Shown here piece after piece: positions 28,845 through 61,036 of a stretch of DNA of 64,000 bases. The notes beneath the pieces were generated by a model that saw nothing but the letters and a program-made list of their open reading frames with translations, searched no databases and was not told the DNA's origin. The translations under genes and the position numbers were made by a program. Source of the stretch: Candidatus Nanohaloarchaea archaeon (GTDB lineage Archaea; Nanohalarchaeota; Nanosalinia; Nanosalinales; Nanosalinaceae); the NCBI GenBank assembly GCA_014297435.1, contig JACOQA010000001.1, positions 1 to 64,000 on the forward strand, given 5' to 3'. Within the stretch, counting starts at the first letter, position 1. Every line of letters starts with the position of its first letter.

Positions 28845-30065
28845 GTTGAAATTGATTGAGAGAATTCATCTAGGTTGAGAAAGATAACAACAAAGCCTAA
28901 ACAATTGTATCTCTAATCGTCAAACGATGGCCAGAAAAACTGTAGTCTGCCGGTTCCAGAAACCAAATAAAAAGAAGCTGGAAGCTGTAGAACGGGAGTA
29001 TAGGAATACCCAGAAGTATCTTCAAGGGGAAGACGATGTGGATTTGTATTCTGCTACGAAACAGCAGATGGATAGGAGAGCCGGCAATGAAGATAATGAG
29101 CAGCCGTTGTTTATCCGCAACGACTCCTTTGAAGTTGTGGAGAGGGATACTGATTTGACGAAATACTGGGTGAGGGTTCCGGTTGCTTCTGTGTATGGGG
29201 GAGTTTGGATACCTATACAACCCCACACGGATATTCAAAGTGGTTGGGATATCGGCGATTCTATGATTGTTCGGAAGGATCATGGTTTTGAACTCCACCT
29301 TGTTGTCAAAAAAGAAGTAGAAGAACAAGAGGAGTATGATGGAGCTCTGGGCGTGGATTTGGGTTTGAGGAAGTTGGCGACTGCCACGGAATGTTTCTGT
29401 GGTTCTGACACGTCCTCAAAAACGCTGTGCCTCGGAAGCTCTGTTGAGAACTACTTTGACAAGTATTTCCACTTACGTAGAAACTGTCGTGATGGTTATG
29501 TCCGGAAACGGTGGGATGGAAAAGTAGCAGATAAGACCGAAGACCTCTGCCATCAAATCAGTCGAAAAATCGTAGACCACGCACAAGAAAACAACCTGTT
29601 TATCGCAGTAGGAGACCTCGAAGGAATACAGGACAAAGACAGAGGAAAAAGAATGAACAGGAAGCTACATCATTTCCCACACTGGAAACTCCGCAACTAC
29701 ATCAGGTATAAAGCGGATTGGGAGGGAATCAGGGTAGTTGAAGTAGACGAAGCCTACACCAGTCAGACCTGCTCGAGGTGCGGAGAAAAAGGGGAACGGA
29801 ACAAAGGAAACTTTCAGTGTCCTGAGTGTGACTACGAAACGGATGCAGATAAGAACGCTTCTCATAATATTGGGGAGCGAGGGATTGGAAAGCTGAATGC
29901 CTCTTCTGATTCTGAGGGTTGCGTGACACAGCCCTTAGTTTGAATCTATCGTTTGATGACGCAACCTCTGCATAGTCAAGTTGTCGAGACGGATAGAAAC
30001 CCAAGGAAACGTCGCTAACAAGAAAAATGTGTCAGGAAACCGCCTAAAGGCGGGTGGGATGTCAC
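28845..30065 (+). mobile_element. Non-autonomous IS200/IS605-family (IS1341-like, tnpB-only) element
   Basis: Right end: hairpin CCGCC-TAAA-GGCGG (30040-30053) then ...GGATGTCAC. The left boundary is inferred after TTAC (28841-28844), because removing 28845-30065 restores rps27ae ...CAC GAG TAA plus its terminator. No tnpA is present. Confidence 0.8.
28927..29943 (+). CDS. tnpB: RNA-guided endonuclease TnpB, compact (338 aa), rearranged RuvC-II
   Basis: RuvC-I 'LGVDLG', RuvC-II 'AVGDL', 'VDEAYTSQTC', Zn finger CSRC..CPEC, RuvC-III 'DADKNASHNI'. Confidence 0.93.
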   Translation: MARKTVVCRFQKPNKKKLEAVEREYRNTQKYLQGEDDVDLYSATKQQMDRRAGNEDNEQPLFIRNDSFEVVERDTDLTKYWVRVPVASVYGGVWIPIQPHTDIQSGWDIGDSMIVRKDHGFELHLVVKKEVEEQEEYDGALGVDLGLRKLATATECFCGSDTSSKTLCLGSSVENYFDKYFHLRRNCRDGYVRKRWDGKVADKTEDLCHQISRKIVDHAQENNLFIAVGDLEGIQDKDRGKRMNRKLHHFPHWKLRNYIRYKADWEGIRVVEVDEAYTSQTCSRCGEKGERNKGNFQCPECDYETDADKNASHNIGERGIGKLNASSDSEGCVTQPLV

Positions 30066-31495: not shown

Positions 31496-31894
31496 CTAGA
31501 TTTGGGTTAGTTCTAGTTCCAGGTATCCGTCATCTGCAGGATCTAGGTCTTGCCGCAATCGCATCTTTGTTTTCGGGTCATATCTCCTGTCAATTAATAT
31601 CTCTTGTTCTCCTGCGGTCACCACCCCTCTATATGTGCCTTCAATTTCTTCGACATTATTTTCAGGTTCTAGTAGGTGGAGAAAGTTGTTCACATTTGGT
31701 GCTTTTCGGGCAATAGCTAAAGTAGGTTCAAGCCCAGCTTGCTTGTAGATTCCGGACGCGTCTGTCGCAAGTCTTTGATCCTTCCAGAAATCTACAAGAG
31801 TGCCCTCCACCGCAGTTCCTTCTATGTTTAGCTGTCCCGAGAATTCTATCTCAGCTTCGTCAAAAATATATCGACCCTCTGCAGCGTAGTTCAT
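31496..31894 (-). CDS. Hypothetical protein (beta-rich)
   Basis: 132-aa ORF inserted between the PIN gene and rpoE1. Confidence 0.65.
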   Translation of the reverse strand: MNYAAEGRYIFDEAEIEFSGQLNIEGTAVEGTLVDFWKDQRLATDASGIYKQAGLEPTLAIARKAPNVNNFLHLLEPENNVEEIEGTYRGVVTAGEQEILIDRRYDPKTKMRLRQDLDPADDGYLELELTQI

Positions 31895-31929: not shown

Positions 31930-32313
31930 CTACAGTCTATTTGTTCTTCCTTCCACGACCTCAAGATGGTCATTAGTCCTGATGATTACAACGGGATTAC
32001 CTTCCTTTCTAATCCTCTGCTTCAACTCCTTGTCGTTGGTAGCCACTAAGTAATCTGAGGAAACATCTAAAAGGAGATCGTCGACAGTTCCTTCTCCTTC
32101 AGTCTCCAGAACCTCAATATCAAGCTTCTCAATCAGTGTCTCGACCAAGTCTCCATACTTCCCGCCCTCGATACTCTTAGCCTCCTGAACCGCATCTTCC
32201 AAGGTATAGAGCTGGTGGAATGGATAGAGTCGGTCGAACTCGTCCTCCAAGGTCATCGAAAGCTGGAAGGGCGCTACCAAAAAATTGGTGTCAAGCATGA
32301 TTTTCTCGTCCAT
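31930..32313 (-). CDS. PIN-domain protein (Fcf1/Utp24-like)
   Basis: 'IMLDTNFL', 'VDD', 'VATNDKELK'; usual position between eif2g and rpoE1. Confidence 0.88.
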   Translation of the reverse strand: MDEKIMLDTNFLVAPFQLSMTLEDEFDRLYPFHQLYTLEDAVQEAKSIEGGKYGDLVETLIEKLDIEVLETEGEGTVDDLLLDVSSDYLVATNDKELKQRIRKEGNPVVIIRTNDHLEVVEGRTNRL

Positions 32314-32365
32314 ATAAACCACTTAATGGTCAAACGTCAAAAAGTCCGGTCCCGAAATAGACTCC

Positions 32366-33298
32366 ATGAATATTGTATCTCTCTGGGATAGCGCTGTAAG
32401 TGATTGGGAACTTGAGAGACCGTTCTCAAAGCAACAATACAACCGAGACTACGAGCACTACTCTAAACTAGCAGAGGAGAAAGACGCGAAACTGTTCCTC
32501 GCCCACTACACATGGTATAAAGATGGAAGGATGAAGAAAGCCTTTACCTATGAAAACGGTGAGTGGAGGAAAGTAAACGATATTGAAGTTAACGGAGTCT
32601 GGGATGCCTTTAAGGTCAACGATGAAACCTTGGAGATAAAGAGGCGGATGGAAGAAAGGCACGTCATAATTAACAGACCTAATGTCGACAGATTGTGTAA
32701 AGACAAGCTAGAAACTTACGAAAGATTCAGCAATTTGGTTCCAGAGACTAGGAAAGCCTCAGAAACAAATATTGAGAGAATGATAGAAAAGTATGGTGAA
32801 GCTGTCGTGAAACCGAGAGATGACTGGGGTGGAGAAGGGGTACAGATAGTTGAAGATGTTTCCGGATTTAATGATGATTCGGAGGACTGGTTGGTACAGG
32901 AGTTCGTTGATGCTTCAGAGGGAATCTCGAAACTTGGAGTAGAAGGAGTACACGATCTCAGGGCCTTAGTCGTAAACGGGGAGGCAGTGACAGGTTTCCT
33001 GAGGCAGCCGGACGAAGGCTTCGTCAGCAACGTACATCAGGGAGGGAGTATCGAAGTAGTTGAACTTGAAAACTTTCCTAGTGGGGCGCTGAATATTGTT
33101 GAACAGGTTAAGGAAGAGATGTCGGATTTAGAACCTTACTTGATGACTGTAGATATGATATATGATTCAGAGACGGATGAGTTCAGGGTGCTGGAGCTTA
33201 ACTCTAAACCAGGAATGAGCTTCTACGGAAGAGAGGATATGAAAAAGGCAAAGTCAAGGGTTATGGAAAGGATTGTTGAGTCTTTCAAAAATGCCTAA
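32366..33298 (+). CDS. ATP-grasp ligase (RimK/YheCD-like), apparently intact
   Basis: 'CKDK', 'VVKPRDDWGGEGV', 'LVQEFV', 'DLRALVV', 'SNVHQGG', 'VD', 'LELNSKPG'. Confidence 0.85.
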   Translation: MNIVSLWDSAVSDWELERPFSKQQYNRDYEHYSKLAEEKDAKLFLAHYTWYKDGRMKKAFTYENGEWRKVNDIEVNGVWDAFKVNDETLEIKRRMEERHVIINRPNVDRLCKDKLETYERFSNLVPETRKASETNIERMIEKYGEAVVKPRDDWGGEGVQIVEDVSGFNDDSEDWLVQEFVDASEGISKLGVEGVHDLRALVVNGEAVTGFLRQPDEGFVSNVHQGGSIEVVELENFPSGALNIVEQVKEEMSDLEPYLMTVDMIYDSETDEFRVLELNSKPGMSFYGREDMKKAKSRVMERIVESFKNA

Positions 33299-34176
33299 TT
33301 TCTCTGTTTCTTCATAGCTCTTTCATGAAGCCTTTCAACCATTAGAAGCATAACATCTCTCCCGATTATTTCGTTCATTTCCTCATTTATCCCGTATGAT
33401 CCATTTACCTCAAGCACGTAGGCATCTTCTTCTGTCTCGATTACGTCACAGCCGCAAATGTCGAAACCTGTAGCTCTTGCTGCTCTTAATGCAGCTGTCT
33501 TCATTTCCTCGGTAAGTTCTGCTTTTTTTCTTTCTCCGCCGCCTGAAATGTTGGAACGCCATTCATCACCGCTGCTTGATCTACTGTAGGCCATAACTTC
33601 GTCACCTATAACTATTACTCGGTTATCGGTTCCCGCATGTTCCTTAAAATCCTGTAGACATATTTCTTGCTCGAAAGATTTCATCGTGTCCATAACCGGT
33701 TTTAACTCGTTTTCTGAGGAAGCGCGCATCACCCCCTCCCCGCCACCGCCCTTAATGGTCTTCATGATGATCGGGTATCCTAGTGTTTCGGCTGCTTCGA
33801 CGGCTACATCGGGTGAGAGCGTATAGACGCTGTCCGGTACTTTGATACCTGTCTCGGCAAGAACTTTCATCGAGTAGAACTTGTTTGATTCGTAGCTGTA
33901 AGTGTCGTTAGCAGCTTGTGTAACGACTCCTTCTTCGTTTAGGATCTCGACTAGATGTTCTGAGAATAGCATGTCTCTGTCGGAGGTTCTAATGTAGACT
34001 GCATCGAATTCCGTCAGATCGACGTCCTTGTAGAGAACTTTCTGCCCCTCATCTGTGTGCACCATCTTTAATCCGTCTACAGGAGCTGCTAATACGGAGT
34101 CGAAGATATCTTCGGCTCTCTCCATAAGCAACTGGTGCTGAGTCGATATCTCCCCGTAGATAATGCCTAGTTTCAT
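33295..34176 (-). CDS. RimK/LysX-family ATP-grasp ligase, intact
   Basis: 'SNK', 'GYPIIMKTIKGGGGEGV', 'LQDF', 'DNRVIVIG', 'WRSNISGGG', 'GCD', 'LEVN'. Confidence 0.9.
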   Translation of the reverse strand: MKLGIIYGEISTQHQLLMERAEDIFDSVLAAPVDGLKMVHTDEGQKVLYKDVDLTEFDAVYIRTSDRDMLFSEHLVEILNEEGVVTQAANDTYSYESNKFYSMKVLAETGIKVPDSVYTLSPDVAVEAAETLGYPIIMKTIKGGGGEGVMRASSENELKPVMDTMKSFEQEICLQDFKEHAGTDNRVIVIGDEVMAYSRSSSGDEWRSNISGGGERKKAELTEEMKTAALRAARATGFDICGCDVIETEEDAYVLEVNGSYGINEEMNEIIGRDVMLLMVERLHERAMKKQRN

Positions 34177-34982
34177 TTTTCATCCTCCTTCAAAAGATCG
34201 GCAACTGTCTCGTACACGTTTTTGCCGCTTGCATCCGAGAAAAGCTGTAGGTCGGGATTAGGATTGATATCGAAGATCTGTTCGCCTCTTAGCTTTACTT
34301 CGGCTACAGAGGTCCCTAAGGAGTTCATGCATTCCCTGATTTTTTGTTCCTTTGAGTCTGAAATGTTCGAATATTTAGGGTTTTCATCCTTGAATTTCCA
34401 AGAATCGGAGTCGTCTTTTAGTGAAATTATTTCGTCTCCGACCACCAAGCATCGATATTTCTCTCCTTTGTCGTAGTTCTGGAATAGCAGGACGTCAGTC
34501 TCATATTCTGTTCCTTCGGCAAAGCTTTGGATGTCCTCAACGGTTTCCAGTTTTCTTATTTCCGTCTCCTCCAGATTCTCGATTTTTCTACCTACTAAAG
34601 GAGGTTCGACTTGGTTGTGAACATTTCTGGCAGCCTTTTCGCTTGGTACAACCACGGTATTCGGAGATTTGATATCTCTCTTCTTCAGGACGTAGTATAG
34701 GTAATTTTTCTTTGACAAGGTGAAGAAACAGGTTGAGGATATGTTTGTATTAACGCCTTTTTCTTCTGTCATTTCGAGAAGAACTCTTCCGAAGACAGCG
34801 TTTTTTGGTCTTATTGTTGCGAAAACTGCGTCGTAGTCTTCAATACTGTTTCCGTTCACTCTTACATCCTTATTTCCTTCGATAACTTCTGGCGCTATAC
34901 TATCAAGTTTTTTGTGTTCAACATTATCGAAGAAAGGTTCAAATTCTTCTACAGGTTCCTCAGAGATCGTCAGAAGTTTAAT
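34173..34982 (-). CDS. Degenerate RimK-like ATP-grasp protein; probable ATT start
   Basis: RimK-like scaffold ('DYDAVF', 'KSPNTVV', 'LFQNY', 'YRCLVVG', 'FDINPNP') lacking the Gly-rich loop and the ExN glutamate. The frame stays open 41 codons upstream of the GTG at 34859, to ATT-AAA-CTT-CTG ((M)KLLTIS) at 34982. Confidence 0.75.
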   Translation of the reverse strand: MKLLTISEEPVEEFEPFFDNVEHKKLDSIAPEVIEGNKDVRVNGNSIEDYDAVFATIRPKNAVFGRVLLEMTEEKGVNTNISSTCFFTLSKKNYLYYVLKKRDIKSPNTVVVPSEKAARNVHNQVEPPLVGRKIENLEETEIRKLETVEDIQSFAEGTEYETDVLLFQNYDKGEKYRCLVVGDEIISLKDDSDSWKFKDENPKYSNISDSKEQKIRECMNSLGTSVAEVKLRGEQIFDINPNPDLQLFSDASGKNVYETVADLLKEDEK

Positions 34983-34988
34983 TGTGGA

Positions 34989-36485
34989 TCAATCCTCGTT
35001 AGGAGACCATAGACGTGTTACATCTCCGTTTTTACGCCATTTCTCCATGTAGCTGGATACTGATTCGGGCATGCTCTCCTGCATAAGTCTTCCTTGTCTC
35101 ATAATCTTTGTAAGCCTCGATTCCAGAGTCTTCGAAAGCTCATCGTAGTAATTTCTGTCGGAGTAGATCAAATCGTTCTTAATCCTCCAGAATGCTGTTG
35201 TTCCCTGAGGTGCGAAGACGTAGTATCCCGAATCGTCAACTATTGCGTCCTGAAGTTTTTCTCTTTCAACATAGTATACTCCGCCATTCTTCACAGGGTC
35301 TACAACCAGGACTTCTCTGTTTTCAACTCCTACACATAGAACGAACTGCTTGCCATCTGATTCAGGGAAAATTTCACTTTTCTCTATCTCCGTTGAAGCA
35401 AGTCCGCCATCATTGAACCAGGTCTTAAGTTCGGCGGAAAGATCAGTTATCTTTTCTTTTTCTATAAATGCAGTTTTTACCTCAGACTCGGTGACCTGTC
35501 TTACCGTCTCATATATTTCTTCGGGACTTGATTCTTCCAGTTTCTCATCTATTTCTTCCTGAGTGGATCGGTAGCCAAAGATTTCTAGTGCCATAACTAT
35601 CGAGGCTGCTCCGCTTGTCTCAGGCTTTTCAGCCACGAAATATTCCTTTATATCTTCAAGTGTTTCAAGGTCGCTCTGGGTTCTCTTGAACGCCATCTTT
35701 GAATCCATCATTTTCTGGTTAGGAACAACTATTGTCCGTCCATCCATGGTGTTGAGGCTTGTACTGAAAAGTGATACTTTCTGAACTTCTGCGATTTCGT
35801 CTTCTATCTCGGCTTCTTCGCCAGGTCTGACGTTCCTTGTGTTTTTGAGGTAGATTCCTGCTGCGTAGTTTTCGAAAAGATCCTTAAAGCCGTAGAACAC
35901 TAGTCCTGCGACAAGGAATGCTACTGCCCAAGATGAGGCAGTGACAAGCTCGTCGACAAACGTACTGCCGATCCCAAATTCAGCAAGAGCTACCTGCATC
36001 AATAACAAGTATAGGAATCCTTTGAGTAGTCCTCCCAGAAGATCTATCGATCCTCCGGAAAGCCCTAGTTCATTCATGTAGCTTTCTGTTCCTAGATTCT
36101 TCAGTAGTTCTCTTCCCAGTCTCGTCGATAGATTGATCGCGATGAAGCCAAGTACGGCTACCATTATCGCAGATATTACTCTAGGTACGTAGCTGGCAAG
36201 GCTTGAAAGAACATTGGCGGATAAACCGGTATTTATGTAGAGTAATGCTAATAGAAGAACTCCTGCGTCTAAAATATAAGATAGGTATTCAAGGATCTCG
36301 TACCGGTTCTCAACCTCTCTTTTAGTGAGTTCCTGGCTTCTGTTAGCCCAGTATTTTTTACCTAGTATGTTTACCAGCTTTACGCCTAGATGTCCTAGTA
36401 CAAGAATTAGGAGCGCTACGCCGGTACGTACCAAAGGGTTTTGCCCCATTCCAAAGTCTAGGAGAGAAGCTAGTAACTGAGCCAT
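34989..36485 (-). CDS. MscS-family channel fused to a catalytically inactive C39-like (papain-fold) domain
   Basis: About 6 TM segments, then the MscS beta-domain 'KDLFENYAAGIYL..RPGE..IVVPNQ', then 'PETSGAASIVMALEIFGYRSTQEEI' and 'GKQFVLCVGV..VLVVDP' (C39 motifs with Cys replaced by Ser and the His lost). Confidence 0.78.
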   Translation of the reverse strand: MAQLLASLLDFGMGQNPLVRTGVALLILVLGHLGVKLVNILGKKYWANRSQELTKREVENRYEILEYLSYILDAGVLLLALLYINTGLSANVLSSLASYVPRVISAIMVAVLGFIAINLSTRLGRELLKNLGTESYMNELGLSGGSIDLLGGLLKGFLYLLLMQVALAEFGIGSTFVDELVTASSWAVAFLVAGLVFYGFKDLFENYAAGIYLKNTRNVRPGEEAEIEDEIAEVQKVSLFSTSLNTMDGRTIVVPNQKMMDSKMAFKRTQSDLETLEDIKEYFVAEKPETSGAASIVMALEIFGYRSTQEEIDEKLEESSPEEIYETVRQVTESEVKTAFIEKEKITDLSAELKTWFNDGGLASTEIEKSEIFPESDGKQFVLCVGVENREVLVVDPVKNGGVYYVEREKLQDAIVDDSGYYVFAPQGTTAFWRIKNDLIYSDRNYYDELSKTLESRLTKIMRQGRLMQESMPESVSSYMEKWRKNGDVTRLWSPNED

Positions 36486-36526: not shown

Positions 36527-37717
36527 TCATTCTTTCGACACGATCTCTCCATGGCCGATTAGGCGCCATCTGGAGCCTATCTGGCGGGAGATAGCGACCC
36601 TGTCACCTTCTTCTGCGCATACAGGCACTTTGAGGTCTACTTTGATCCTGTCGCCGGCCTGAGTTACGTAACCTGCTGACTTGCTTGTGCCGACGTTGAG
36701 CATAAGAGGTTCTTTCTCCTTGATGTTCTCGATCTCCTGCTCGTTCTCAGAACCTACAAGACGGTCCATAAGCTCAACATCTACTGTTATATTGTACGTG
36801 ACTTCAGGAAGTTCTCCTTCACGTCCCATGATGTTGCCTGAAAGACCATCAGATTTTCCAAGTGAAGGATCTAGCTTTGTTTCTACTGCGAGAAGTCCTC
36901 CAGGTTTACCTTTCCCTACAGGATTGCCTCCATGGAAAATGTTGGAAACCTCGGTCTTTACAGGCTCCCATTCGTCTTCGGCGACTTTTACGCCAGGACG
37001 GATCTCGACTTTCTCGCCCTTCTCCAGCTCGCCTTTAGTCAGGGAGCCTCCGACAACGCCTCCTTTTATCTCGGAGATCTCGCTTCCTGGCTTGTTGATG
37101 TCGAAAGATCTTGCAAGAAGCATCTTCGGTGCTGCATCATTGTCTCTTTCCGGTGTAGGGATCTCTTCATCAACTGCTTCAAGCAGCGCATCGATGTTAA
37201 CCTGTTGCTGTGCAGAGACAGGTATAATAGGTGCTTCCTCTGCAACAGAACCTTCTAGGAAGTTCTTGATCTGTTCGTAGTTTTCTCGGGCTTCTTCTTT
37301 AGATACTTTGTCTATCTTGTTCTGTACTACTACAATGTTTTCTACTCCTGCGATATCCAGGGCTGCGAGGTGTTCTCTTGTCTGTGGCTGAGGGCAGTCC
37401 TCATCTGCGGCTACAAGAAGGATTGCGCCGTCCATAATCGCTGCTCCTGAAAGAACGTTTGCCATCAGGGTCTCGTGTCCTGGTGCATCGACAAGCGAAA
37501 CAGTTCTCTCAATTTTGCCGTCTCCATCTACGTTCAGCTCACCATCATCATTATAGTATGTGATGTCGGCGTAGCCGAGCTTGATGGTGATGCCTCTCTT
37601 CAATTCTTCTGAGTGTTCGTCAGTCCATTTGCCTGAGAGGGCGTTTGTTAGGGTTGTCTTTCCGTGGTCTACGTGACCTACGAGCCCGATGTTTACCTCG
37701 GGTATTTTATCTGTCAT
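36527..37717 (-). CDS. eif2g: Translation initiation factor 2 gamma subunit
   Basis: 'GHVDHGKTT', 'RGITIKLGY', 'DAPGHE', 'NKID', 'RWRLIG'. Confidence 0.97.
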
Positions 37718-37977
37718 AATATAATTTCATCCTCCGGAACCTTGATAGTTCTTTCTTCGTTCGAAAGTTGGTATTTTTTGGCGAAGGAGAATGAAAATCT
37801 CTCCTCCACTGTGTACTGATTGTCTCGATAACTTACTTCTTCTCCTTCTTGAAACCTAAAACCTCTTAGAGACTCGGTATAAGATTCGACTTCCTGTTTG
37901 TAAGGAAGTGAATCTGCCTTTTTCTCCAGCTTGTTTACTTTTCTATGGAGTTTCCGAGTCCAGGGTTCGTGAGTCAT
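37714..37977 (-). CDS. Small hypothetical protein translationally coupled between rps6e and eif2g
   Basis: 87-aa ORF with ATGA overlaps at both ends. Confidence 0.7.
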
Positions 37978-38450: not shown

Positions 38451-39878
38451 ATGAGGAGTTCAGTTATAGATGATATTGTCGGAAGCTTCCTGAAGATATA
38501 CTCTTTAGTGCTCCTCGTACCGTTTTTTGTCGGAATCTACTTCATGGACTCTATTTTGACAGTTACAGGATTTGGTCTTGCATCTCTGGTTTCTTTCACA
38601 CTAGGTTATGGGCTTTCCGGTTCTACCAAGAAACCTACTGTTTCCGAAGCCATGTTCGCTACAGTACTTGGATGGATACTGGCTATCATACTGGGGGCGA
38701 TACCTTTCATGAGCCACGTTCCTATGATCGATGCTATATTCGAGTCAAGTGCAGGTCTTACAACCACAGGAATCTCTATGGTTCTTGAGCCTTCCAGCCT
38801 GCCTCAATCACTGCTGTTCTGGAGAGGTTTCTCCCAGTGGATCGGAGGTCTAGGAATACTAACATTCTTTATAGCGGTTGTAAGAGAGTCTGGAGGCGTC
38901 ACGAGAAGGCTTTACTCCGCAGAGTCGCATAAGACAGATTCTGGCTCTATAAGACCTTCGCTTAAGAAATCAATAGTTGATCTATGGAAGGTTTACGGTT
39001 TCATAACTGTTCTTTTCGGAGCTATCTATCTGGGTCTCGATATGTCGATATTTGACTCTTTAATGCACGTCTTCTCAGGTATCTCAACAGGAGGTTTTTC
39101 AACACAGGCTTCAAGCATAGGAGGATTCTCTTTAGGCGTCCAGATAGCGACGATTCCGCTAATGTTGCTTGGAGGGATCAACTTCGTCCTGCTATACAAA
39201 CTTCTGAAGATGGATGTCCGCCCTCTTATCGGTAGTTCGGAGTTCAAGATGTACGTTATGATCTTTCTCGGAGTCGCTCTGATGACTTCTACAGAACTAT
39301 TCGTTACCGGAGGGAACTTAGTTGTTTCGATCTTTGAGGGAAGCTTCAAATCAGCCGCAGTGATTTCATCGACAGGGTACTCTACCTTTTCTATCACATC
39401 GCTTTCCGTAGCTTTACAGGTTGTTTTCCTCGCAGTTATGTTTGTCGGAGGATCTTTAGGTTCAACATCAGGAGGATGGAAAGTCTTCAGACTAAAGACG
39501 ATGTACGAAGCTTTGAAGGTCAGGTTAAGAGGTTACAAGCTTCCAGAATCTGCTATAAACAAGGTCAAGATAGATGGAGAGATTGTAAATAATTCAACGG
39601 TTAGAACGATCTCGGTTCTATTCTTTACGTGGATTTCGATGATATTTGTCTCAAGCGTTCTGGTTTTGGTTGCGGATGGAACAAGCTTCATGGCTGCGCT
39701 TTCAGGCTCTATTTCAGCTGCTGGAAACATGGGTCCGGTGTACATGTCGGGGAACGAGATGCTTGCTCTTTCCGGTTTCACAAAGATTCTCTGGAGCTTC
39801 CTGATGCTTGCCGGTCGTTTGGAGATGCTTCCTCTGCTGGCAATATTTAATAGGGAGCTTTTCGAAGGTTCTAAATAA
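38451..39878 (+). CDS. trkH: Trk potassium uptake membrane protein TrkH
   Basis: P-loop repeats 'FESSAGLTTTG', 'QWIGGLG', 'ISTGGFS', 'GSTSGG.K', 'MLAGRLE'. Confidence 0.93.
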   Translation: MRSSVIDDIVGSFLKIYSLVLLVPFFVGIYFMDSILTVTGFGLASLVSFTLGYGLSGSTKKPTVSEAMFATVLGWILAIILGAIPFMSHVPMIDAIFESSAGLTTTGISMVLEPSSLPQSLLFWRGFSQWIGGLGILTFFIAVVRESGGVTRRLYSAESHKTDSGSIRPSLKKSIVDLWKVYGFITVLFGAIYLGLDMSIFDSLMHVFSGISTGGFSTQASSIGGFSLGVQIATIPLMLLGGINFVLLYKLLKMDVRPLIGSSEFKMYVMIFLGVALMTSTELFVTGGNLVVSIFEGSFKSAAVISSTGYSTFSITSLSVALQVVFLAVMFVGGSLGSTSGGWKVFRLKTMYEALKVRLRGYKLPESAINKVKIDGEIVNNSTVRTISVLFFTWISMIFVSSVLVLVADGTSFMAALSGSISAAGNMGPVYMSGNEMLALSGFTKILWSFLMLAGRLEMLPLLAIFNRELFEGSK

Positions 39879-39879
39879 T

Positions 39880-40539
39880 ATGTATGTAGTAATCGCAGGA
39901 ATCACGACGCTGGGAAGAAAGCTGGTTGAAGAGCTTGAAGACAATCATGACATAGTCGTGATCGATGAAGACCAGGACAGATGTGAAAGACTTTACTCTT
40001 CATCTGGTGCGACAGTGATCAACAAATCTCCATCGAATATTACAGCTCTGGAGGATGCGGGAGTTACGAAAGCAGATGTACTAATATCTGCTCTGGATGA
40101 TGATAACAGCAACATGGTTGTATGCTCGCTTGCGAAGAAATATGGTGTACCTAAAGTTGTTTCAAGAGTGGAAAATGATGAGTATCTTGAGGCATTCGAG
40201 ATAGTGGGAGCTGAACCTATCGCCCACACAGATATCTTACTATCCGAGTTCTTGTCTTACGTAGAACATCCGTATTTGTTGAAGCTTGCGAACCTTTCGA
40301 ATAATCGTGAGATCTTGAAAGCTTCGATCAAAGAAGGTTCGGGTCTCGAAGGAAGGACTCCTAAAGAAATGCAGCAGGACGATAAGTTTCCTGACCGTTT
40401 TAAAGTAGTTTCAGTTCTACAGGACGATAAAACTATCTCCGACGACCTGAATATCCAGTTGAATCAGGAGGACAAGATGATTATGATAGGTCCTTCGGAT
40501 ATGACGGACAAACTTGATCGGTATTTCCAGAAACAGTGA
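39880..40539 (+). CDS. trkA: Trk potassium uptake regulatory subunit TrkA
   Basis: RCK domain 'LEDAGVTKADVLI', 'AKKYGVPKVVSRV'; ATG at 39880 right after trkH. Confidence 0.88.
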   Translation: MYVVIAGITTLGRKLVEELEDNHDIVVIDEDQDRCERLYSSSGATVINKSPSNITALEDAGVTKADVLISALDDDNSNMVVCSLAKKYGVPKVVSRVENDEYLEAFEIVGAEPIAHTDILLSEFLSYVEHPYLLKLANLSNNREILKASIKEGSGLEGRTPKEMQQDDKFPDRFKVVSVLQDDKTISDDLNIQLNQEDKMIMIGPSDMTDKLDRYFQKQ

Positions 40540-60208: not shown

Positions 60209-61036
60209 ATGGTATCTCTTCCTCCGCAACTTACCAACAAAATTGAACTAATAGGCTTCTCAATCTCCCCACAAATCATAATTGTAGCTCTTCTAGTCGT
60301 TTTCGGCGGCTGGGTGGCTAACAAGATATCAAATGTCTTTATCCAAAGAGCAGTAAAAAGGAGAGGTGGTGACTTGCATGCAGCAGTTACGGGGAAGAAG
60401 ATATCAGCTTACATCATATACACATTAACGTTTATAGTCCTTCTAGGCGTATTTGGAGTACCTCTAACTTCACTTGGTGCGGTAGTAGGTCTTGTAGGTT
60501 TAGGGCTTTCCTTCGCCCTGAAAGACATGATTGCCAACTTCATTTCAGGGGTCTTTATCCTTGCGAACGGAGAGTTCAAGATAGGAGATCAGATCGAGGT
60601 CGCTGGAGAGGAAGGCACCATCAAGGATATTAAGATCCGAGCGACCGATATCAAAACCTTTGATGGACGAAAAGTAATCGTTCCGAACTCACAGCTCTAC
60701 AGCGATGTAGTTATCAACAACACAGCTTACGATGAAAGAAGGTTCGAGGTCGTAGTCGGAATAGGTTACGATGACGATATTGAGAAGGCAAAGGAACTTG
60801 CTTTCGAAGCATTGGAGGAAGCAGAAGGAATAGAAGCTGAACCCGAACCTCAAGTCTTAGTTAATGAGCTAGGAGGGTCTTCTGTTAATCTGAAGCTTAG
60901 AGGCTGGACTAAACCGACCAGAGCGAGTCAGGTAAAGGCTTCGTCTGAACTAACTCAACTCGTCAAGGAAAAGTACGATGGAGCAGGAATAGACATTCCG
61001 TATCCAATCAGAACAGTTTACATGAACGAGGAATAA
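60209..61036 (+). CDS. mscS: Small-conductance mechanosensitive channel MscS (canonical)
   Basis: 'GLSFALKDMIANFISG', 'FKIGDQI', 'IVPN', 'VGIGYDDD', 'IDIPYP'. Confidence 0.93.
   Translation: MVSLPPQLTNKIELIGFSISPQIIIVALLVVFGGWVANKISNVFIQRAVKRRGGDLHAAVTGKKISAYIIYTLTFIVLLGVFGVPLTSLGAVVGLVGLGLSFALKDMIANFISGVFILANGEFKIGDQIEVAGEEGTIKDIKIRATDIKTFDGRKVIVPNSQLYSDVVINNTAYDERRFEVVVGIGYDDDIEKAKELAFEALEEAEGIEAEPEPQVLVNELGGSSVNLKLRGWTKPTRASQVKASSELTQLVKEKYDGAGIDIPYPIRTVYMNEE

Follow-up and report, generated by a model that had tools for sequence, protein, structure and literature searches.

An operon of halophilic DPANN archaea that encodes an MscS-like/papain-fold fusion protein and a pair of RimK-type ATP-grasp paralogues

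We analysed a stretch of 64,000 nucleotides (the window) from a Candidatus Nanohaloarchaea archaeon (assembly GCA_014297435.1, contig JACOQA010000001.1, positions 1 to 64,000), whose genome is 99% complete at 1.0 Mb. Behind the gene for the gamma subunit of translation initiation factor 2 (eIF2γ) lie three genes, here called G1, G2 and G3, which appear from their layout to form one tightly overlapping operon. G1 encodes a protein with a membrane part like that of the mechanosensitive channel MscS, fused to a papain-fold domain; G3 encodes an intact RimK-family ATP-grasp ligase and G2 a degenerate paralogue of it. A fourth gene, G4, encodes a further ATP-grasp ligase. We propose that G1, G2 and G3 specify a membrane-anchored module for ATP-dependent carboxylate-amine ligation, specific to halophilic DPANN archaea, and we give this reading an even chance of being correct. 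The genes and domains are as follows.

34989-36485, minus strand: G1, MscS/papain-fold fusion, 498 residues
35703-36485, minus strand: G1 residues 1-261, MscS-like membrane part and beta-domain (from Pfam, PDB and hydropathy)
35196-35702, minus strand: G1 residues 262-430, papain-fold domain resembling C39 peptidases and phytochelatin synthase (from profiles and alignment)
34992-35195, minus strand: G1 residues 431-498, conserved C-terminal extension (invariant columns, no family)
34173-34982, minus strand: G2, degenerate RimK paralogue, about 269 residues, ATT start
33295-34176, minus strand: G3, intact RimK-family ATP-grasp ligase, 293 residues
32366-33298, plus strand: G4, intact divergent ATP-grasp ligase (GshB/RimK/YheCD/TTL-like), 310 residues, variable accessory

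An earlier reading, made from the letters of the window (the sequence-only reading), had placed four open reading frames between eIF2γ and the PIN and rpoE genes. All four were found there, together with the ATGA by which the start of G3 overlaps the stop of G2 and the convergent orientation of G4 towards G3.

G1, G2 and G3 are inherited together

We collected 49 related loci from species-representative genomes; in three of these loci the contig breaks off within G1. Taxon names follow the public records, and counts across these related genomes are not independent of each other. All 46 loci that extend past G1 had G1, G2 and G3 in this order on one strand, and eIF2γ stood directly upstream of G1 in 39 of the 43 loci with enough upstream DNA. 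In the window's GTDB phylum, 64 of 70 genomes (27 of the 28 high-quality ones) had the C-terminal domain of G1, and 65 of 70 had G3. Of the six genomes without G1, five lacked G3 too, and the sixth is fragmented. A second GTDB phylum, which includes the genome of locus L036, yielded the domain in 7 of 201 sampled genomes. There the trio is not next to eIF2γ; in one case G4 and a P-loop gene (see below) accompany it, in another it stands between purine genes with neither of them. It is kept together in at least three genomic contexts and two GTDB phyla. Since the same trio recurs in different contexts and is gained, kept or lost together, the three genes travel as a unit. The sequence-only reading had looked to other genomes for co-occurrence of all four genes. 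This was borne out for G1, G2 and G3, with G1 and G3 co-inherited, but G4 did not prove to be a fixed member: it occurs in zero to three copies per locus, and other genomes have a GCS2 or P-loop gene.

When 5.8 billion proteins were searched with G1, 187 relatives came back; the best 120 of the 187 are all 411-533 residues long, and the named entries among these 120 are all nanohaloarchaea. The C-terminal 229 residues of G1 were also searched with HMMER, blind to length, against 1.84 billion representatives. This gave 63 proteins, 45 of them 436-544 residues long with the match in their C-terminal half. Four remote relatives (P0164, P0170, P0173 and P0175) also carry the MscS beta-domain; no locus for the last of these, a protein of 439 residues, was confirmed in genome contigs. 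These searches suggest that the C-terminal domain of G1 is almost confined to the MscS-fusion architecture.

One of the loci, L027 (JBLGBK010000004.1), is titled as a metagenome-assembled genome of Colwellia polaris and holds a full nanohaloarchaeal S6e-eIF2γ-G1-G2-G3-G4-PIN-rpoE locus. Its taxon label is evidently wrong.

G1 and G2 share DNA in most loci

In most loci where the start of G2 could be placed, it overlaps the end of G1 by 23 nt or 4 nt. The ribosome-binding site (Shine-Dalgarno sequence) of G2, GGAGGTGA, lies inside G1, where it is read as Gly-Gly-Asp/Glu. With the 23-nt overlap, the end of G1 ('DEFTDTDE*') and the N-terminus of G2 ('MNLLILT') share DNA (L034:7525-7572, L036:7450-7497 and other loci), and such sharing, between the first codons of G2 and the last 7-8 of G1, is seen in most other genomes. 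The overlap therefore largely accounts for the conserved acidic tail of G1. Self-processing of G1 was considered as well, as the tails of deep-branching G1 proteins ('..GG(D/E)KKLDEFTxTDE') resembled a C39 double-glycine site. This candidate was rejected because the Gly-Gly codons are the ribosome-binding site of G2 and the tail is the DNA of the G2 N-terminus.

In the window, G2 had been called from a GTG (34173-34859, minus strand) as a protein of 228 residues, and gene callers cut it to this length in the nearest relative too. Orthologues begin 'MKLLKIT..' about 41 residues earlier. The corresponding stretch of the window runs in frame directly after the stop of G1 ('..NED* S T I K L L T I S E E P ..') and contains no ATG, GTG or TTG. 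When these 41 codons were compared with the nearest genome, differences were distributed 6/0/23 over codon positions 1/2/3, a pattern which indicates that the stretch is translated. An ATT at 34982, seven bases past the TGA of G1 and in the same frame as G1, stands where orthologues have ATG; the nearest relatives, L001 and L002, have ATC at this position. The conserved in-frame upstream codons thus correct the length of G2 from 228 to about 269 residues, and G2 of the window probably starts at AUU or by re-initiation. Taken together, the arrangement suggests that the co-inherited trio is encoded for coupled translation.

G3 is an intact ligase and G2 its degenerate paralogue

G3 had been read as an intact RimK-like ligase, and profile searches upheld this. 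It passed the subfamily cut-off of TIGR00768 (rimK_fam; 145.5 bits, cut-off 143.4, E 2e-42), matched Pfam RimK at E 7.6e-35, and had RimK enzymes as its nearest PDB entries (E 8e-26 to 2e-24). Every ATP-grasp catalytic residue is kept: K139, the Gly loop, Q175, D184, R186, R207, S208, N209, D244, E256 and N258 are invariant in 44 sequences. G2 scored 22.7 bits against Pfam RimK (cut-off 21) and aligned to G3 in hhalign at 99.6% (E 7.8e-24). It has no Gly-rich loop and no counterparts of D184, S208/N209 and D244 of G3, and just 4 columns are invariant among its 44 orthologues, none of them catalytic. Homology to G3 is clear and the catalytic residues are gone, in agreement with the degenerate RimK-like protein seen by the sequence-only reading. 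Judged by its residues, G2 is a conserved paralogue of G3 that is unable to catalyse.

G4 had likewise been taken for an intact ATP-grasp ligase, and its catalytic set (K149, Q178, D197, R199, R213, N222, D263, E277 and N279) is invariant in 24 sequences. In Pfam it matched ATP-grasp_3 (E 1.5e-11) and also YheCD, RimK and GSH-S_ATP; the best PDB match was E. coli glutathione synthetase (E 2e-5), and the score against the GshB equivalog was 50.4 bits (cut-off 272). A CDC123-like identity, that is, an eIF2γ-binding ATP-grasp protein, was tried for the ligases and rejected: G2, G3 and G4 gave no match to the Pfam family D123/CDC123 at E up to 0.1, and the trio is also found away from eIF2γ.

That the ligases might be ordinary CofF, MptN or LysX enzymes had been raised from the outset. 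All equivalog scores of G3 were far below the cut-offs: MptN 124 bits (cut-off 350), LysX 108 (275.6), S6 ligase 100 (331) and CofF 74 (300). Neither CofE nor LysW was found in the window genome, while control genomes gave matches; GCS2 was also not found there, and the only RimK-family genes of this genome are G2, G3 and G4. Because the equivalog scores are low and CofE and LysW were not found, a cofactor or lysine-pathway role for the ligases seems unlikely. The same results bear on the view that there is no system at all, only an ordinary channel variant and ordinary CofF/MptN/LysX/ArgX-type ligases that are merely syntenic in one phylum. Synteny of this kind can persist without function, and public annotation names the genes singly ('mechanosensitive ion channel domain-containing protein', 'RimK family alpha-L-glutamate ligase'). 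However, the MptN, LysX and CofF scores, the lack of CofE and LysW in a nearly complete genome, and the fact that no RimK-family gene occurs outside this locus speak against it. So do the intact trio in several contexts and two phyla, the gene overlaps with the ribosome-binding site of G2 inside G1, and the joint presence or absence of G1 and G3. We find this view hardly credible.

The membrane half of G1 resembles MscS

Hydropathy gave five hydrophobic segments in G1 (residues 23-41, 64-93, 103-121, 149-167 and 180-198) and none beyond 198. G1 matched the Pfam families MS_channel_2nd (PF00924; 38.3 bits, cut-off 20.2, E 1.4e-9) and MscS TM helix (PF05552; 24.6 bits, cut-off 22, E 2.4e-5), and residues 93-260 aligned to PDB sequences of MscM and MscS (E 2e-7 to 8e-6). 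The transmembrane helices and MscS beta-domain noted from the letters alone are therefore real features of G1. The C-terminal alpha-beta vestibule domain of MscS (PF21082) gave no Pfam match in G1, which fits the claim that the normal C-terminal domain has been replaced. A separate canonical MscS, also predicted, lies at 60209-61036 and carries PF21082 (E 9.6e-12); MscS-type genes in the window genome number four in total.

Canonical MscS proteins (E. coli MscS and MscM; PDB 2oau and 6rld) align to G1 over their last three transmembrane helices and the beta-domain, and their pore-helix motif 'NxAAG' is found in G1 as well. G1 differs from them in two extra N-terminal helices and in the papain-fold domain and 68-residue tail which replace PF21082.

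The papain-fold domain is conserved although its catalytic residues vary

The second half of G1 was examined in an alignment of 44 family members. Peptidase_C39_2 (PF13529) matched 38 of the 44 (best E 1.2e-12), Peptidase_C39 (PF03412) 32 (best E 4.5e-9) and phytochelatin synthase (PF05023) 16 (best E 2e-6), the window protein being unmatched by the last. The papain-fold assignment of the G1 domain follows from these matches of its relatives. A profile of the domain had a sole match in the PDB, the Nostoc phytochelatin-synthase homologue Alr0975, which was weak (E 2e-3) with Cys, His and Asp aligned; NCBIfam gave nothing relevant for the domain. In the ESM Atlas model of G1 (whole-protein pLDDT 0.69, pTM 0.38), residues 262-445 matched clusters of C39, C39_2 and phytochelatin-synthase proteins at TM-scores of 0.50-0.70, matches that may serve as a lead and not as a test. 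A papain/C39-clan segment, as first proposed, is well in line with these data.

Both motif strings quoted for this segment are present in G1. Most relatives read 'AQxPSYCGPAS ... GH(Y/F)VL ... DP' in the family alignment, where window G1 reads 'AEKPETSGAAS ... KQFVL ... DP'. The oxyanion Gln has become Glu ('VAEKPETSG'), the Cys Ser and the His Gln, and the Asp is kept. The earlier statement that both catalytic residues are lost stands, since Cys and His are both gone; its pairing does not, as the His aligns with the Gln of 'GKQFVL' and not with the Lys. On the evidence of these residues, the papain-fold domain in the window genome is catalytically dead. A dead domain is not a trait of the family, however: Cys and His are both kept in 28 of the 44 aligned proteins, and one or both are gone in 16. 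This majority suggests an ancestral system with an active-looking peptidase or transpeptidase, from which the dead state is derived.

The tail that follows the domain (residues 431-498) has no Pfam or NCBIfam match, and W433, R434, Y441, K452, E455, R463, G465, W483 and W493 are invariant in the family alignment. We compared the window with its nearest relative by the ratio of nonsynonymous (dN) to synonymous (dS) substitution rates. dN/dS was 0.075 for G1 residues 262-498, 0.046 for the membrane half of G1, 0.084 for G4 and 0.027 for eIF2γ; for G2 and G3, where dS was saturated, dN was 0.078 and 0.037, respectively. The low dN/dS indicates that the dead domain is under strong purifying selection and not decaying. 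In HlyB-type exporters, inactive C39-like domains do no more than bind substrate, and by analogy the dead yet conserved domain of the window may be of this kind.

C39-like domains and ATP-grasp enzymes also meet in the maturation and export of ribosomally synthesised and post-translationally modified peptides. Applied to this locus, an ATP-grasp enzyme would modify a precursor, the C39 domain would cut its double-glycine leader, and the MscS-like pore would replace the ABC exporter. C39-ABC transporters are the most frequent family beside graspetide ATP-grasp genes, according to the passages of PMC8939145 on such neighbourhoods, and the main text of PMC10318531 describes C39 domains as transporter parts. 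G1 shows none of the bacteriocin-type features looked for: no ABC exporter is fused, the membrane part being MscS-like, and the operon has no precursor gene. The overlapping trio leaves no space for one, precursors having been sought at the locus only and not genome-wide. Furthermore, G3 matches rimK_fam (E 2e-42) far better than the graspetide maturase model TIGR04187 (E 3e-6). The operon has outlasted at least four losses of the peptidase residues, and the Gly-Gly seen in G1 tails elsewhere reflects the ribosome-binding site of G2 rather than a cleavage motif. Peptide maturation of this type is thus very improbable here.

The position after G3 is variable

A P-loop gene of about 345 codons is convergent on G3 in 18 loci (e.g. 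L034:9246-10283(-)). Its product contains the Walker A motif 'SRMDAGKTT' and the motifs 'KLTGSARERD' and 'SGPITDTT'; family matches were to MobB/CbiA, at Walker-A level only and all below curated cut-offs, and the PDB holds no significant relative. In 10 loci a GCS2/YbdK-type carboxylate-amine ligase comes directly after G3 on the same strand (e.g. L016:9254-10306(+)), and 5 loci have an AstE/AspA-like deacylase (e.g. L035:10165-11193(-)). Other loci have one to three convergent G4-type ATP-grasp genes after G3. The window contains neither the GCS2/YbdK ligase nor the deacylase, and the P-loop gene, absent from the window genome, adjoins G3 where G1 has retained Cys and His.

The accessory gene appears to track the state of the peptidase. 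A GCS2 or P-loop gene was present in 27 of the 28 loci with intact Cys and His, the exception being L012. The loci with lost residues and downstream DNA (14, the window included) had a GCS2 or P-loop gene in no case and at least one G4 in all 14. On an approximate tree (FastTree, with Shimodaira-Hasegawa-like support only) the catalytic losses represent at least three independent events, and L063, from the second phylum, adds a fourth. As the events are few and related, the link between peptidase state and accessory gene is to be read as a pattern, not as a statistic.

The GCS2 gene, together with the nearest relatives of G1 and G4, points to the synthesis of gamma-glutamyl thiol peptides as a further explanation. 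GCS2 would make gamma-Glu-Cys, G4 would extend it, the G1 domain would transpeptidate or deglycinate the product, and the channel would release it. In favour of this, Alr0975, with its Cys, His and Asp aligned, is the only PDB match of the domain profile, PF05023 is found in 16 of the 44 members, the Atlas model matches a phytochelatin-synthase cluster at a TM-score of 0.56, GCS2 directly follows G3 in the 10 loci, and G4 has glutathione synthetase as its best solved relative. The window genome nevertheless has no GCS2 and its domain no Gln, Cys or His, yet the operon is under purifying selection. In the 18 loci with a P-loop gene, this gene replaces GCS2; the phytochelatin model matches fewer members, and less well, than the C39_2 and C39 models do; and no role is left for the constant RimK-type pair. 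We give this explanation little credence.

A model for the module

We favour a model in which G1, G2 and G3 act together as a ligation module at the membrane. G2 and G3 would form a hetero-oligomer with G2 as the non-catalytic partner that holds G3; RimK enzymes are oligomers. The pair would work at the membrane on the cytoplasmic domains of G1, where G3 would extend a small acidic peptide or metabolite by Glu-type residues on the cytoplasmic side. A second, interchangeable ligase would make the other amide bond, G4 in the window and the GCS2 ligase or the P-loop protein elsewhere. The papain-fold domain would bind the product or the substrate and, in most lineages, also hydrolyse or transfer it; in the window, where Gln, Cys and His are missing, it would be a binding or docking platform only. 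The MscS-like pore may let the product out or take membrane tension as an input. In Corynebacterium, glutamate is exported by a channel of the MscS type. A small acidic peptide is favoured over a protein because the accessory families (GCS2, GshB-like and AstE/AspA-like) act on small acyl-amino acids, because Alr0975, the solved protein nearest to the domain, is a glutathione-cleaving enzyme, and because MscS-type channels pass solutes.

Several points weigh against this model. G1 on its own stays below the Pfam cut-off for Peptidase_C39 (14-16.6 bits, cut-off 22; E 0.046 at 14 bits). RimK prototypes also modify proteins, and members of the G4 family have precomputed matches to the TTL family (PF03133), which would fit protein tagging. 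MscS pores are known for solutes, and the opening of G1 is putative. The link of peptidase state to accessory gene, drawn on the approximate tree, rests on three or four independent events with labels shared by kin.

Protein tagging in the manner of RimK and S6 is accordingly the alternative that we take most seriously, though we think it unlikely. A protein would receive Glu-type residues, at its C-terminus or on a side chain, from G3; G2 would be the substrate adaptor and G4 a second tagger. To this may be added, with equal reserve, that the papain-fold domain would be the eraser where it is active and that the MscS part would anchor or regulate the complex. The nearest solved relatives of G3 are RimK enzymes, and a precedent for a writer and an eraser is given by RimK and RimB in the passages of PMC11957791 on this pair. 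The TTL matches among G4 relatives also suit tagging, as does the position of the operon among translation and transcription genes (S6e, eIF2γ, rpoE, spt4 and S24e) in the 39 of 43 loci; the part of PMC4431377 on the eukaryotic ATP-grasp protein CDC123 reports that it binds eIF2γ. However, G2, G3 and G4 have no match to the CDC123 family, the trio also occurs away from eIF2γ, and G3 reaches 100 of the 331 bits needed for the S6-ligase equivalog. We know of no archaeal counterpart of bacterial S6 (bS6), which likewise counts against tagging. The accessory GCS2, AstE-like and P-loop genes suit small molecules better, and acidic C-termini are found throughout the window proteome, so that no target stands out.

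The ligation module could be taken one step further, to G1 as a mechanosensitive 'channel-enzyme'. An MscS-type ring would carry papain-fold (trans)peptidase domains in place of the vestibule domains, with G2 and G3 docked on the papain-fold domains, and membrane tension would directly set the balance of making, breaking and release of an acidic oligopeptide. Oligo-glutamate as a K+ counter-ion or osmotic buffer would be one example. This extension is speculative and decidedly unlikely; if true, a salt-in symbiont with a 1-Mb genome would have a new means of coping with osmotic shifts, or of feeding its host or signalling to it.

Genomic context of the operon

The operon and G4 are flanked by the following genes.

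36527-37717, minus strand: eIF2γ, upstream flank, on the same strand as G1 and 41 nt away
31930-32322, minus strand: PIN-domain gene, downstream flank of the insertion (Pfam PIN_9, E 3.7e-9)

After the module the order is PIN gene, a 132-residue open reading frame and rpoE. The sequence-only reading had seen the genes as an insertion in the eIF2γ-PIN-rpoE order, and the S6e-eIF2γ-PIN-rpoE cluster is indeed uninterrupted in one relative without the module. In that high-quality genome (G001), S6e-eIF2γ-PIN-rpoE-spt4-S24e are contiguous and PIN adjoins eIF2γ, which fits an insertion elsewhere, although a deletion in G001 is also conceivable.

Other features of the surroundings were noted in passing. 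The 132-residue frame between PIN and rpoE (31496-31894, minus strand) has no Pfam match, and tblastn gave no match to it in the 49 related loci, which usually have PIN next to rpoE. An 87-residue frame (37714-37977, minus strand), also without a Pfam match, overlaps the ends of S6e and eIF2γ; its sole match among the 49 loci is in the nearest relative, L001 (68%). Between the G4 copies and PIN, L001 has a gene for an M24 Xaa-Pro peptidase (L001:11832-12995(+), E 4.7e-61) and a family-less 234-residue frame, neither of which is present at the equivalent place in the window. TrkH and TrkA K+-uptake genes (38451-40539, plus strand) are divergent from S6e, and TrkH, a K+ transporter gene neighbouring the operon, is kept at the same position in most related loci with upstream DNA; this proximity may be synteny only. 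Finally, a frame of 338 residues (28927-29943, plus strand) matched the Cas12f1-like/TnpB TNB domain (E 1.9e-24) and weakly OrfB_IS605. By these matches it is a TnpB-type transposon-associated nuclease gene, and it lies beside ribosomal protein genes.

Significance and comparison with known systems

Nanohaloarchaeota are stripped of most biosynthetic pathways. Their genomes measure about 1 Mb, yet the operon is present in 27 of the 28 high-quality ones, wedged in a core translation cluster; such retention suggests that it matters for their way of life. The family offers a natural series of papain-fold domains, active as well as inactive, on one scaffold, and a conserved enzyme/pseudo-enzyme pair of ligases. 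If a small acidic peptide is indeed released or regulated through the channel, osmotic sensing would be newly linked to peptide metabolism. Orthologues of G1 and G2 are recorded from Nanohalobium constans and other named nanohaloarchaea, which are in co-culture, so that the idea is open to bench testing.

Iyer et al. in 2009 (Mol Biosyst) reportedly described neighbourhoods of ATP-grasp and GCS2 amidoligases with papain-like or AstE-like peptidases, which would make or remove peptide tags or metabolites. The operon shares with them the broad theme of several carboxylate-amine ligases beside a peptidase; a fusion to an MscS channel and a dedicated pseudo-ligase are not known to be part of that description. 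The first nanohaloarchaeal genomes appeared after that work. In the literature on nanohaloarchaea, MscS, RimK and C39 (main texts, without supplements) we found no description of an MscS/papain-fold fusion or of the operon. The word 'mechanosensitive' is absent from the main text of the survey of papain-like proteins PMC10318531, and the three passages of PMC12650772 that mention a 'mechanosensitive channel' concern haloarchaeal isolates or halophilic archaea generally, none of them nanohaloarchaea.

Further known systems come close. According to the sections of PMC11957791 on Pseudomonas RimABK, the RimK ligase works with a dedicated protease, RimB, which trims its product; fused ligase-peptidase forms exist, and RimB can stimulate polymer synthesis by RimK. 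The trio resembles this system, as far as those sections describe it, in that a RimK-type ATP-grasp ligase is encoded with a dedicated peptidase. It differs in that the peptidase has a papain fold, whereas RimB is retropepsin-like, and is fused to an MscS-type protein; in addition, a dead ligase paralogue is a constant member and G3 lies below the S6-ligase equivalog cut-off. Peptidase-containing ABC transporters, as presented in the main text of PMC10318531, share with G1 a C39-clan domain on the cytoplasmic face of a membrane conduit. Unlike in C39-ABC and HlyB-type exporters, the conduit of G1 is of the MscS type, its partners are RimK-type ligases, and no double-glycine precursor was seen at the locus. 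Alr0975 of Nostoc (PDB 2btw) aligns with the G1 family at Cys, His and Asp, the match being the weak one noted above; in contrast to G1 it is a soluble, single-domain protein that acts on glutathione, and window G1 lacks the Cys and the His. Each family is thus known singly, as are ligase-peptidase modules and peptidases on a membrane conduit. What appears to be undescribed is their combination: an MscS part in which a papain-fold domain replaces the vestibule, a fixed RimK pair of enzyme and pseudo-enzyme, and a third ligase that can be swapped.

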